NCBI GenBank assembly: GCA_963752475.1
Contig: CAVVYR010000006.1
Coordinates: 1 to 64,000 of the forward strand
DNA: 64,000 bases
Reading direction: 5' to 3'
Origin: an uncultured Chloroflexia bacterium
Lineage (GTDB): Bacteria > Chloroflexota > Limnocylindria > Limnocylindrales > CSP1-4
The number at the start of each line of letters is the position of its first letter. Within the stretch, counting starts at the first letter, position 1. The notes beneath the pieces are model-generated. The model had not been told where the DNA came from. It searched no databases and saw nothing but the letters and a program-made list of their open reading frames with translations. Both the position numbers and the translations under genes were made by a program. Positions 34,094-38,265 of the stretch are shown here, piece after piece.

Positions 34094-34902
34094 GCACCGG
34101 ACCTGCCGATCGCTACACCCATGGACACCACGATTCGGTGCTGGCGTCCCATCGCACGCGTACGGTGGCCAACTCGGCGGCCTATCTGCTGCCACGCCTG
34201 GGCCCTGGCCAGCGGCTGCTCGATGTCGGCTGCGGTCCAGGCACCATCACCGTCGATCTCGCTGCGCGCGTGGCTCCAGGCGAGGTCGTGGCCCTCGATC
34301 GTGAAGCCGACATGCTGGCCGAGGTCGCGCGGCTGGCCGCCGACAACGGCGCCTTCAACGTGACTCCGACCGTCGGCGACGTCTATGACCTTGGATACCC
34401 TGAGGGCGTCTTCGACGTCGTCCATGCCCACCAGGTCCTGCAACACCTATCCGATCCAGTGGCGGCGCTGCGCGAGATGCGCCGCATCACGCGCCCGGGC
34501 GGGCTCGTGGCAGCACGCGATGCCGACTACGCGGCCATGATCTGGTACCCGCTCGACCCACGCCTCGACCGATGGCTGGAGATCTACCACGCGGTCGCGC
34601 GCGCCAACCGGGCCGAGCCCGATGCCGGTCGCCGGCTCCTCGCCTGGGCACACGCGGCCGGGTTCTCCGACGTCGCCCCCAGTGCCTCGACGTGGGTCTT
34701 CGCCGACGAGGCCAGTCGTCGATGGTGGGGCGAGACCTGGGCCGAACGCACGCTGAGCTCGGACCTCGCCGGGCAGGCACTGGACAGGCGCATCGCCACT
34801 CGTGCGGAGCTCGAGGACGTGGCTGCCGGCTGGCGGTCCTGGCTGGCACACCCGGACGCCTGGTTCAGCGTCCTCCACGGGGAGATCCTGGCGACGCCCT
34901 AG
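34090..34902 (+). CDS. Class I SAM-dependent methyltransferase
   Basis: YTHGHH..LDVGCGPG..FDVVHAHQVLQH; ATGA overlap. Confidence 0.9.
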   Translation: MSTGPADRYTHGHHDSVLASHRTRTVANSAAYLLPRLGPGQRLLDVGCGPGTITVDLAARVAPGEVVALDREADMLAEVARLAADNGAFNVTPTVGDVYDLGYPEGVFDVVHAHQVLQHLSDPVAALREMRRITRPGGLVAARDADYAAMIWYPLDPRLDRWLEIYHAVARANRAEPDAGRRLLAWAHAAGFSDVAPSASTWVFADEASRRWWGETWAERTLSSDLAGQALDRRIATRAELEDVAAGWRSWLAHPDAWFSVLHGEILATP

Positions 34903-35720
34903 TTGCTGATCGAGCGGTACTTGCGCACTCCCAGCGGGGCGAACACCGCCAACATCACCACCATCCAGCCCATGGTCACCAGGACCGGGTACTCACCCGG
35001 GATGCCCTGGGCCGGGAACGGGTTGGGGTTGCCCCACAACTCTCGCAGCGACGCGGTCAGCGTGCTCACCGGGTTCCAGGCGGCGACCGGCTGGAGCCAG
35101 TCCGGCAGCGTGCCGATGGGCACGAAGACGTTGGACACGAAGGTCAGCGGCAGGATGACGATGAACGAGACCTGCTGGGCGACCTCGACCGACGGCAGCC
35201 GCAGGCCCAGCCAGACCCCCACCCACGACATGACGAAGGCATAGGCCAGGGCGCCACCGATGCCGAGCAGGAGCCCGATGAGGCCGGTGTTCACGGTCCA
35301 GCCCACGACGAAGCCCGAGATCATCAGCACCATGAGGATGCCGCCGTTGTAGATGACGTCCGAGACGGAGCGCCCGAAGAGCACGGCCGAGCGCGCCATG
35401 GGCAGGGAGCGGAAGCGGTCGATGATGCCCTTGTGCAGGTCCTCGGTCATGCCGATGGCGGTGGTGGCCGAGGCGAACGTCAGCGTCTGCACGAAGATGC
35501 CCGGCATCAGGTACTCGGTGTAGCTGGCGCCGCCGGGCAGGGGGATGGCGCCGCCGAACACGACCGAGAACAGCAGCACGAACATGATCGACTGGAGGAT
35601 GGCGAAGATGGCCAGCTCGGGGATGCGCGGGATGCGCTTGAGGTAGCGCCACGTCAGCATCAGCCCGTCGTCGACCGCACCTCGCAGCCCTCGGTCCGCG
35701 GCTGGTGCGGGGGCGCTCAC
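34899..35720 (-). CDS. ABC-2 permease (DrrB-like); GTG start created at the IS junction
   Basis: GIIDRFRSLPM and WNPVS motifs. Confidence 0.9.
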   Translation of the reverse strand: MSAPAPAADRGLRGAVDDGLMLTWRYLKRIPRIPELAIFAILQSIMFVLLFSVVFGGAIPLPGGASYTEYLMPGIFVQTLTFASATTAIGMTEDLHKGIIDRFRSLPMARSAVLFGRSVSDVIYNGGILMVLMISGFVVGWTVNTGLIGLLLGIGGALAYAFVMSWVGVWLGLRLPSVEVAQQVSFIVILPLTFVSNVFVPIGTLPDWLQPVAAWNPVSTLTASLRELWGNPNPFPAQGIPGEYPVLVTMGWMVVMLAVFAPLGVRKYRSISN

Positions 35721-37269
35721 TGGTGCACCCTCTTCCTGTCGGTAGTCGCAGATCGACTGCCGATGCACCCGAGGTGCCGTCGGGTCACTGCCCCGCTCGC
35801 TCGAACCTTCGAGGTCCAGCATGAGTTCCGCAGGACCCGGCGGTCATCCGGGACGCCGTGACCGTCGACAGGGCTGTGCGCCATGGCCATCACCGGCCGG
35901 GAGCGCCGATCAGTGAGCTGACAGGCAGATGCGTCCCGGCACCGAGATGCGGGTGCCTCCCCACTGGGATCAGCAGCGAGGAGGCTGACATGCAGTCTGC
36001 CAGTATCACCCCGAGTCGGGGCTCGTCCGACCAGCCCGTCAGCGTCGCCGTCACCGGTGGCGTGGACTGGGCCAGCGCCGATCATGCCGTGGCCGTCGTC
36101 GACGACGATGGCCGCCAGCTCGCCCGCGAGCGCGTCGAGCACACCGCCGCGGGCCTGCGGGCGATGGTGCGGTTCCTGGCCGATCATGGCGTGGCCGAGG
36201 TCGCCATCGAGCGTGGCGACGGCCCGGTGGTCGAGGCCCTGCTCGACGCCGGGCTGACCGTCGTCGTCATCAGCCCCAACCAGCTCAAGGGCCTCCGTTC
36301 GCGCTACGGCTCGGCCGGCAACAAGGACGACCGCTTCGACGCCTTCGTGCTCGCCGACACCCTGCGCACCGACCGGGCCCGGCTTCGCCCGCTGACCCAG
36401 GACACCGAGGCCACGCGGACCCTGCGCGCCACCGTGCGGGCCCGTCGCGACCTGGTCAGGCACCGCGTCGCGGTGTGCAACCAGCTTCGCGCCCACCTGC
36501 AGGCCACCTTCCCCGGCGTGGTCGGCCTGTTCGCAGAGCTGGACTCGCCGATCAGCCTGGCCTTCCTGGCCCGCTTCGACTCCCAGGCACGTGCCGACTG
36601 GCTCTCCCCCGGGCGGCTGGCGGCCTGGCTGGCCAGCGTCGGCTACAGCGGCCGCAAGGACCCCGCCGACCTCCATGCCCGACTGCAGGCCGCACCCCGG
36701 GGCCCGGTCGGACCCGACGGTGCCGCCCGGGCCCATGTCACCCGCGCCCTGCTCAGCGTGCTCGACGGCCTGGTCGAGCAGATCGGGACCCTCGAGGCGC
36801 AGATCACCGAGCAGCTCGCCCTTCACGCCGACGCCCACATCTTCCGGTCCCTGCCCCGCAGCGGCACCGTCCGCGCCGCCCGGCTGCTCGCCGAGATCGG
36901 CGACGTCCGCGCCCGCTTCCCCGACGCCGCCTCCCTGGCCTGCCTGGCCGGCGTCGCGCCCTCGACCAGACAGTCCGGCAAGCACCGAGCCGTCACGTTC
37001 CGCTGGGCGGTCGACAAGGAGCTCCGCGACGCGGTCTGCGACTTCGCCGGCGACTCCCGACGCGCCAACCCCTGGGCCGCGAAGATCTACGACGACGCCA
37101 TCGCCCGGGGCAAGGACCACCCCCACGCGACCCGCATCCTGGCCCGTGCCTGGCTCGGCGTGATCTGGCGCTGCTGGCAGGATGACGCCGCCTACGAACC
37201 CGCCCGACACCACGCCCTCCAGGCCATGCAGGACACCGCCATGGCGGCCCAGGGTTGACACAGGGCTAC

Positions 37270-37273
<4 letters not shown>
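35717..37273 (-). CDS. Antisense host-initiated ORF across IS110 (hed-like)
   Basis: 518 codons from the original permease ATG to a TGA overlapping the new GTG. Confidence 0.45.
35760..35925 (+). ncRNA. Putative IS110 bridge RNA
   Basis: The non-coding end contains GCATGAG (rc of target CTCATGC), ACAGGGCT (donor left) and CAGTGAG (rc of donor CTCACTG) within stem-loop contexts. Boundaries are approximate. Confidence 0.7.
35990..37258 (+). CDS. IS110 DEDD recombinase/transposase
   Basis: GVDW, AIE, KDDRFDA and GVAPSTRQSG motifs; GAGGAGG SD. Confidence 0.95.
   Translation: MQSASITPSRGSSDQPVSVAVTGGVDWASADHAVAVVDDDGRQLARERVEHTAAGLRAMVRFLADHGVAEVAIERGDGPVVEALLDAGLTVVVISPNQLKGLRSRYGSAGNKDDRFDAFVLADTLRTDRARLRPLTQDTEATRTLRATVRARRDLVRHRVAVCNQLRAHLQATFPGVVGLFAELDSPISLAFLARFDSQARADWLSPGRLAAWLASVGYSGRKDPADLHARLQAAPRGPVGPDGAARAHVTRALLSVLDGLVEQIGTLEAQITEQLALHADAHIFRSLPRSGTVRAARLLAEIGDVRARFPDAASLACLAGVAPSTRQSGKHRAVTFRWAVDKELRDAVCDFAGDSRRANPWAAKIYDDAIARGKDHPHATRILARAWLGVIWRCWQDDAAYEPARHHALQAMQDTAMAAQG
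37255..37260 (+). promoter_or_regulatory. -35 box for an IS circle-junction promoter
   Basis: TTGACA near the element end. After circularisation CACCCT would lie 18 bp downstream. Confidence 0.55.

Positions 37274-38265
<992 letters not shown>

Follow-up and report, generated by a model that had tools for sequence, protein, structure and literature searches.

Positions 35716–37270 of the window (the whole 64,000-nucleotide stretch analysed here, from contig CAVVYR010000006.1 of an uncultured bacterium labelled Chloroflexia) are an IS110-group insertion sequence that is active or recently active. Its left end very probably encodes a bridge RNA, predicted from the family alignment to have a 5′ stem-loop and two further loops, one for target binding and one for donor binding. 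The element lies two bases past the start codon of an ABC-2 permease gene, the site named by its right target guide, and across related elements this start-codon targeting is real, though not absolute. Guides set to start codons go together with a frame that is open across the entire element on the strand opposite the transposase, running from the host start codon to a stop codon that overlaps a candidate new start codon for the interrupted gene. We regard it as an evenly balanced proposition that this antisense frame is kept open for ribosome passage, with restart, rather than for its product. IS110 bridge RNAs are already established and the element in the window adds one more; what might be new is that guide programming is linked with an open antisense frame and with a stop–start overlap at the end of the element.

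An earlier note, made from the sequence alone, had read the region as an IS110 element with a bridge RNA aimed at a start codon. The IS110 assignment is confirmed by the 422-amino-acid transposase, which matches Pfam DEDD_Tnp_IS110 (PF01548, 2.1e-36) and Transposase_20 (PF02371, 1.2e-18) and scores 180 bits against the NCBIfam model NF033542, 'IS110 family RNA-guided transposase' (cut-off 140). Protein queries started at 35981, 9 nt 5′ of the ATG, which adds three residues and otherwise had no effect. The protein thus has the N-terminal DEDD RuvC-like domain and C-terminal Tnp domain of the group, and near-invariant acidic residues and serines in its family fit the DEDD-plus-Ser pattern (compared with those of IS621, PMC11208158). 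IS110-group elements have a long non-coding left end, a short right end and no long subterminal inverted repeats (PMC11208160). The left end in the window measures 272 nt (35718–35989) and the right end reaches 12 nt past the transposase stop codon. The junction sequences and an empty-site contig show a CT core at both junctions and no other duplication; the left junction reads GGGGGCG-CT-CACTGG (core at 35716–35717) and the right junction ACAGGGCTA-CT-CATGC (core at 37269–37270). The element, its junctions and the interrupted operon are laid out as follows.

35716–37270, plus strand: IS110-group insertion sequence, 1,553 bp with the CT core dinucleotide at either junction
35716–35717, plus strand: left copy of the CT core, which precedes CACTGG in 77 of 77 left ends found
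35718–35722, plus strand: right donor (RD), CACTG, in agreement with the right donor guide
35990–37258, plus strand: transposase (bridge recombinase) gene, with GAGGAGG before the ATG at 35990
37260–37270, plus strand: left donor, ACAGGGCTA, and right copy of the CT core
37271–37275, plus strand: right target (RT), CATGC; read on the minus strand, 37273–37271 is the permease ATG
37270–38265, minus strand: ABC transporter ATPase gene (Pfam ABC_tran, 1.7e-32), intact, upstream in the permease operon
34899–35720, minus strand: ABC-2 permease gene (Pfam ABC2_membrane, 3.7e-27), separated from its own Shine–Dalgarno sequence and ATG

The predicted bridge RNA and its guides

Relatives were collected in a scan of one genome per species, which gave 593 candidate stretches and 457 confirmed loci; the 80 loci kept share 67–93% amino-acid identity and come mostly from Actinomycetota, with carriers that include named isolates such as Planobispora rosea, Kribbella qitaiheensis and Cellulomonas fimi SB. 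Among the 82 elements examined, the left end was located in 77, the right end in 71 and both ends in 68, and the guide–flank comparisons below span about 60–70 related elements. Folding the left end together with its homologues, the check that the earlier note had proposed, used 60 distinct left ends (six near-duplicates were dropped from 66). RNAalifold predicts 49 pairs in this alignment, 28 of which show compensatory changes on both sides. Standard pairs fill 98.7% of the cells, against 30.5–46.6% after the partners are slid by 1–3 columns, and on none of five fold measures did any of 500 shuffles reach the observed value. The family fold is a 5′ stem-loop and then two stem-loops with internal loops, the arrangement of the IS110 group, and covariation thereby bears out the two-loop architecture proposed for this left end. 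Folded as a single sequence, the left end of the window element yields only a modest gain over shuffles (z = −2.54, with 3 of 200 shuffles folding equally well), and its minimum-energy structure pairs the guides with each other; the family alignment was therefore relied on. The predicted RNA contains the following parts.

35738–35764, plus strand: 5′ stem-loop (helix 1, 10 bp; 7 of 10 pairs changed on both sides, 99% of cells paired)
35765–35777, plus strand: small conserved hairpin GCACC/GGTGC (helix 2, 99.3% of cells paired)
35778–35842, plus strand: target-binding loop module, with a 13-bp outer stem of 35778–35791 with 35830–35842 (helix 3; 10 of 13 pairs changed on both sides)
35794–35801, plus strand: left target guide (LTG), CGCTCGCT, in the top-strand sense of left target plus core
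35803–35816, plus strand: inner hairpin of the target-binding loop (helix 4; 3 of 4 pairs changed on both sides, one pair in the window being A-G)
35819–35825, plus strand: right target guide (RTG), GCATGAG; its reverse complement, CT-CATGC, is the core followed by RT
35826–35827, plus strand: target-loop handshake guide, TT, whose first base would pair with donor position 7 (A at 37268)
35851–35936, plus strand: donor-binding loop module, with outer stems 35851–35856/35931–35936 and 35862–35864/35923–35925 and inner stem 35878–35881/35903–35906
35868–35875, plus strand: left donor guide (LDG), ACAGGGCT, which changes together with the right end of the element
35911–35917, plus strand: right donor guide (RDG), CAGTGAG; its reverse complement is the core followed by RD
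35918–35919, plus strand: donor-loop handshake guide, CT, whose C would pair with target position 7 (G)

Helix 2 barely varies and so was not put to the test by covariation. The stem that the earlier note drew at the base of the first loop, CGGGTC.CTGC (35781–35791) with GCAG.GACCCG (35830–35839), is present and extends to 13 pairs; its bulged A at 35787 is invariant in all 60 left ends. Within this loop the family supports helix 4, to which the 6-bp inner hairpin of the earlier reading is a possible alternative. The donor-binding module is built of helices 5, 6 and 8, with 5 of the 6 pairs of helix 5 changed on both sides. Its inner hairpin (35882–35902) carries a lineage-specific insert that ranges from 0 to about 27 nt in the family and forms a GGCC/GGCC mini-hairpin in the window. 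A further predicted helix, 35874–35877 with 35911–35914, pairs one donor guide with the other, never covaries and was not relied on. Between the donor-binding loop and the transposase gene (35937–35989) stands a conserved GGCACC...GGTGCC hairpin whose loop varies; then come TCCCCACTGGG, almost invariant, and the ribosome-binding site. This hairpin could serve either to terminate the bridge RNA or to control translation.

All three guide strings singled out in the earlier note lie where it had placed them: GCATGAG at 35819–35825, ACAGGGCT at 35868–35875 and CAGTGAG at 35911–35917. That such matches between the left end and its flanks arise by chance is almost certainly wrong. Either 7-mer alone does turn up in about 6% of shuffled left ends (with the 263-nt left end shuffled 20,000 times and dinucleotides preserved, GCATGAG in 5.7%, CAGTGAG in 5.8% and ACAGGGCT in 0.4%), but both 7-mers occur together in only 0.26% and all three motifs in 0 of 20,000, and the strong family-wide covariation described next refutes the chance reading. 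In the strand sense expected for the IS110 group, segments of the first loop covary with the target and segments of the second loop with the donor.

In the published guide rule, each loop's 3′ side is complementary to the top strand of the core and the right target or donor (PMC11208160, PMC11208158). The right target guide was compared in 59 elements whose right flank extends for 9 nt or more, leaving aside L056 and L081, in which the junction register is shifted by one. The RNA matches target positions 10, 11, 12, 13 and 14 in 59, 58, 56, 59 and 56 of these, respectively, and positions 15 and 16 in only 4 and 14; none of 10,000 permutations reached the observed mean match. Because positions 10–14 match and positions 15–16 do not, the guide is exactly 7 nt long. 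The family contains 20 distinct right-guide 7-mers, and the flank is the exact prediction of the guide in 58 of 67 elements, the nine exceptions being one base or one register off. The proposed right guide therefore covaries with the right target across homologues, and the longer resemblance to the host Shine–Dalgarno sequence, also pointed out in the earlier note, is not part of it: an extension of the guide in that direction is ruled out by the counts at positions 15 and 16.

The left target guide had to be moved. The segment first proposed, CCCGCTC, lies 4–5 nt too far 5′, and homology places the guide at CGCTCGCT. In variant lineages (among them L057/59, L058/60, L080, L081, L044, L056 and L027), the guide block is 8–9 nt long, ends in GCT directly before the inner hairpin, and fits the left target at 5–6 of 7 positions. 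Over positions 1–7 in 61 elements the mean match is 3.41, against 3.00 when permuted, a value reached by 0 of 10,000 permutations. This covariation comes from the variant lineages only and is weak in the main class. Of the 49 elements with the guide core GCTCGCT, all 49 have G at target position 7 (17 expected), 25 have C at position 6 (18 expected) and 15 have T at position 5 (7.3 expected), with positions 1–4 at background. Since position 7 is fixed, positions 5–6 are mildly enriched and positions 1–4 are at background, the relaxed left-arm specificity suspected from the first reading holds in the corrected register. Pairing of G-rich left targets (the window element, copy 2, L006, L053 and L077) with the C-run 5′ of the left guide was also considered, and was dropped because positions 1–4 have background composition. 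A side branch of three elements (L058, L060 and L081) has left and right guides that both match fully, and near-identical flanks at different sites; it apparently targets a repeated intergenic sequence.

On the donor side, the left guide tracks changes at the right end of the element, with ATAGGGCT in eight elements and ACAGGACT in L081, and five one-base mismatches. The right donor guide fits the left end in 76 of 76 elements, including L084, where the sole variant, CAATGAG, is accompanied by the corresponding change in the left end. According to the IS621 papers, each right guide is followed on its 3′ side by two bases that, once the first strand exchange has taken place, pair with the other DNA at positions 7 and 6, the handshake (PMC11208160, PMC11208158). 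Of 68 elements, 67 have at 35826 a base that can pair with donor position 7 (T-A in 40, A-T in 26 and G-C in 1). In 59 of 61 elements the C at 35918 stands opposite a G in target position 7, too little variation for a covariation test.

Several observations weigh against this bridge-RNA assignment. Pairing of the left donor guide spans donor positions −1 to 6 and ends 3 nt short of the core; the left donor guide of IS621, by our reading of the published pairings, reaches it (PMC11208158). The left target guide of the window fits its own left target plus core at only 5 of 8 positions (CGCT plus one), and that of copy 2 at 4 of 8. A search of Rfam 15 over 35500–37500 with E-values up to 10 returned six chance-level matches, none of them related (best E-value 0.9) and all far below the gathering score, and Rfam may hold no bridge-RNA family. 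Contigs from RNA-labelled runs cover parts of the element (X16, 35774–36013; X17, 35745–35929; X5, 35714–36029, with a foreign left flank), and over 35745–36029 RNA-library contigs are all there is. These contigs were not counted as transcription, because they reveal neither strand, ends nor level and such libraries can hold DNA; as the X17 contig (185 nt) overlaps with the next one, its length is no evidence of where an RNA ends. Among the run contigs searched, none across the circle junction was reported.

It is very improbable, in our judgement, that the guide-like segments act as DNA, or as protein-binding end repeats, and not through an RNA. Covariation between segment and flank cannot by itself separate RNA pairing from DNA pairing, and the RNA-library contigs do not demonstrate an RNA. 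The segments nevertheless sit in internal loops of helices whose pairing survives by way of compensatory changes and G-U intermediates, as is characteristic of a single strand that folds. Their layout is that of IS621, whose RNA is necessary in vitro (PMC11208160), and the protein falls within the NCBIfam equivalog of RNA-guided IS110 transposases. Bridge RNAs have been predicted in 85.7% of IS110-group elements (PMC11208160).

Start-codon insertion and the antisense frame

The insertion point is the overlapping stop and start codons of the ABC ATPase and ABC-2 permease genes in a minus-strand operon. The TGA stop codon of the ATPase gene (37272–37270) overlaps the permease ATG (37273–37271), and the permease gene body resumes only at 35720, running down to 34899. 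On the gene strand the target reads GC-ATG-AGC, so the start-codon target named in the earlier note is borne out. The genome of the window holds three copies of the element, two of them full-length and 100% identical and one truncated at its 5′ end. All three copies lie at minus-strand start codons, because the right flank of each is CT-CATGC followed by the complement of a Shine–Dalgarno sequence at the usual distance. Copy 2 interrupts a 79-codon gene, second to another gene in its operon, that reads like a lipoyl- or biotinyl-domain protein.

Two further features follow from this position.

35717–37273, minus strand: antisense open frame of 518 codons, from the host ATG to a TGA at 35719–35717, spanning the whole element
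35718–35720, minus strand: GTG supplied by the left end of the element, overlapping the antisense TGA and in the frame of the permease gene

The insertion falls two bases past the ATG, and behind the core the left end brings CAC; this puts a potential start codon back where the host gene had its own, with the second codon of that gene next. The left-end bases that give this GTG are invariant in the family, except in L084, where they give ATG.

In 51 of 68 elements no stop interrupts the antisense frame between the flank codon and the terminal TGA, a length of 507–544 codons; the other two antisense frames carry 1–25 stops. Openness goes with what the element has landed on. The frame is open in 48 of the 54 elements with an ATG or GTG entry codon and in 3 of the 14 with other entry codons, and the six closed elements with an ATG or GTG entry all have lengths that are not multiples of three. 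Seven independent pairs with different types of entry codon, each a retargeting event, can be drawn on a tree of 65 transposases; frame state follows the retargeting in about six of the seven pairs and runs opposite to it in none (sign test, median p = 0.031). The side branch L058/L060/L081 has five stops in its antisense frame.

A shadow effect of the GC-rich transposase gene could produce an open antisense frame without any role, with start-codon targeting an accident of inherited guides and the bridge RNA being right all the same. We consider this account unlikely, though it draws on many of the observations that count against ribosome passage. The antisense frame shares its codon boundaries with the transposase frame, and frames so placed are often open in GC-rich genes: in ordinary genes of the window the corresponding frame has about 1.9 stops per 500 codons, and none at all in 6 of 18. 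Wobble-type variation in the antisense frame of the left end was not found (entropy 0.43, 0.55 and 0.42 at codon positions 1–3), nor was an excess of GC at the third codon position (GC3; 0.63, 0.67 and 0.69 at the three positions), and the frame has no Pfam match. At the 36 reconstructed start-type sites, an open frame of at least 100 codons lies behind the entry codon in 23 and in the control frame in 15, and a Shine–Dalgarno-like motif is present in 18 of 36, only about half. The three open elements with a non-start entry are also exceptions to the pattern; they are copies of one element (L067/68/76) that enters at CTG, and the upstream open length in this group is 11–469 codons. Of the 14 non-start sites, an open frame of at least 100 codons was found in one and a Shine–Dalgarno-like motif in two.

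What speaks against the shadow account is the left end of the element. No plus-strand coding exists there, so a shadow effect cannot act in it, yet the antisense frame is stop-free in 62 of 67 distinct left-end sequences (mean 0.09 stops), and the five other frames average 1.9–2.8 stops and are stop-free in 0–6 of 67. Among 49 open elements there are 18 distinct left-end lengths, and all 18 keep the antisense frame. Elements that have moved off ATG or GTG, moreover, carry 1–5 internal stops or frameshifts in the antisense frame, their transposase frames being intact (length filter of at least 380 amino acids).

It appears improbable that the antisense frame codes for a functional protein like the hed product of IS900, and that start codons are chosen to express this protein rather than to spare the host gene. 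The layout of the frame is the same as that of IS900 hed. Its left-end part, however, shows no sign of amino-acid constraint, and the missing GC3 excess and protein-family match argue in the same direction; these tests of protein constraint are weak, because they are confounded by RNA structure and by the overlapping transposase gene. A likeness in sequence to the IS900 hed product would likewise be bound up with that gene.

If the frame is instead kept open for passage, as we propose, the pieces would work together as follows. The right guide and the G at position 7 would drop the element two bases past an ATG or GTG that is followed by AGC, with the position-7 G facing both the last pre-core base of the left guide and the handshake base of the donor loop. 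The ribosome-binding site and start codon of the host would then drive translation of the antisense frame, and ribosomes started at the host ATG would cross the element through that stop-free frame. They would stop at the TGA that overlaps the GTG, and the interrupted gene would restart there, its residues after the initiator unchanged and polarity avoided. Selection would act on the openness of the antisense frame and not on its protein, and once a guide was reprogrammed to a non-start target the frame would be expected to decay. By extension, the balance is about equal for and against a 'translationally transparent' clade of actinobacterial IS110 elements defined by guide-set insertion at start codons, ribosome read-through and GTG restart.

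Mobility, promoter and proposed recombination

One contig from a DNA run (X1) links 35715 directly to 37269, skipping 1,553 bases. It has a depth of 6.3, with 26 letters on its shorter side and four ambiguous letters; contigs across the occupied junctions have depths of 4.9–6.3. Because this contig spans the uninterrupted target, the empty site coexists with the occupied one and the insertion is polymorphic in run X1, which is possibly the sample behind the window assembly.

The third, truncated copy in the genome (L003, C6:339362-340430) has lost its first ~515 bases and lacks one base near its right end. It directly adjoins an ABC ATPase-like reading frame, which suggests that the left part of the element was deleted together with neighbouring host DNA. 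The nearest relatives of the window element, L006 and L008 (92–93% amino-acid identity, same guides), are in metagenome-assembled genomes labelled Chloroflexia; their placement outside Actinomycetota could reflect horizontal transfer or a binning or labelling problem. Six elements (L017, L035, L050, L056, L058 and L081) carry a tandem duplication of about 44 nt at the start of the left end (alignment A1, columns 1–44), which brings a second segment resembling the 5′ stem-loop and a second GGTGCACCATC motif.

The two ends of the element carry candidate promoter boxes.

37255–37260, plus strand: TTGACA, candidate −35 box, overlapping the transposase stop codon (37256–37258)
35726–35731, plus strand: CACCCT, candidate −10 box (family consensus CACCAT), with the 5′ stem-loop starting a few bases on

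Each base of TTGACA is at least 90% conserved among 55 distinct junctions. In IS621, the circle junction rebuilds a sigma-70-like promoter (PMC11208158). By analogy, an excision circle that unites the right and left ends of the window element would bring together TTGACA, an 18-nt spacer and CACCCT, a promoter that could drive the bridge RNA. We infer RNA production, promoter and catalysis here, as we do antisense translation and restart. In the proposed reaction, ACAGGGCT and CAGTGAG in the donor-binding loop would hold the two sides of the circle junction. The target GC-ATG-AGC would be set by the right guide, the core and position 7, with the remainder of the left guide mostly ignored, and the DEDD/Ser recombinase would swap strands at the CT core. 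Once the first strands were exchanged, the bases at 35826 and 35918 would each pair with position 7 of the other DNA.

Relation to known IS110 elements

The closest described counterpart in mechanism is IS621 (Durrant et al. 2024, PMC11208160; Hiraizumi et al. 2024, PMC11208158). Both elements have a recombinase of DEDD and Tnp domains, a long left end and a short right end, and an RNA plan of 5′ stem-loop, target-binding loop and donor-binding loop. In both, the left guides are in top-strand sense and the right guides complementary, the core is CT, and each right guide has handshake bases on its 3′ side. The A that bulges from the loop stem in the window has a likeness in the flipped-out A nucleotides of the IS621 loop modules, and TTGACA at the right end could likewise rebuild a circle promoter. 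In contrast to IS621, the RTG of the window family is fixed at 7 nt, and the LTG, 9 nt in IS621, limits only the 1–3 core-adjacent bases in most lineages here. The LDG in the window ends before the core, the linker between the catalytic domains is longer in this 422-amino-acid protein, and the target is a start codon instead of the repeated intergenic sequence of IS621. The side branch L058/L060/L081, with its full guides and repeat-like flanks, resembles ISPpu10 and other repeat-targeting IS110 elements (abstract of bioRxiv 10.64898/2026.03.19.712850), whereas the branch of the window element combines a loose left arm with start-codon targets. IS621 is described as recombining substrates that match half of its bridge RNA (abstract of bioRxiv 10.64898/2026.08.31.748434), and natural insertions in the present family similarly match the right arm fully and the left arm poorly. 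There, the half-match concerns excision and off-target events; here, judged from natural insertion sites, it seems to be the normal mode of target choice.

The antisense frame has its nearest parallel in IS900 of Mycobacterium avium subsp. paratuberculosis. PMC8141618, citing Doran et al. 1997, describes hed ('host expression dependent') as an open reading frame (ORF) over the whole element, on the strand complementary to the transposase, without a ribosome-binding site or start codon of its own and of unexplained function. IS900 and the window family are thus alike in being actinobacterial IS110-family elements with a whole-element ORF opposite the transposase that depends on host translation signals at the insertion site. 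In the window, the minus-strand ORF at 35717–37273 spans the element and its first codon is the host ATG (37273–37271) after a host GAGGAGG; ATG or GTG stands there in 54 of 68 elements. IS900 inserts between the ribosome-binding site and the ATG. The window family, by contrast, inserts two bases past the ATG, so that the host ATG itself opens the antisense frame and the end of the element supplies a GTG for the host gene, overlapping the TGA of the frame. 'Bridge RNA' and 'IS900' were not found together in the literature searched, a body of text that lacks most subscription journals, and among the matches listed for IS110 with start codon, antisense or host expression dependent, nothing appeared related by title.

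The element provides a well-resolved natural bridge RNA from high-GC Actinomycetota, with guides that can be read directly and are confirmed by covariation. Target choice in its family can rest almost wholly on the right arm, 7 nt plus one base, and such right-arm-led targeting matters for the off-target rules of bridge recombinases that serve as tools for genome editing. The association of start-codon guides with an open antisense frame and a terminal stop–start overlap ties the bridge-RNA mechanism of 2024 to the hed puzzle of 1997. It also offers a testable idea, an insertion sequence that sits inside an operon without silencing it. If true, translational transparency would explain both the hed-type ORF of IS900-like elements and the tolerance of a loose left guide.

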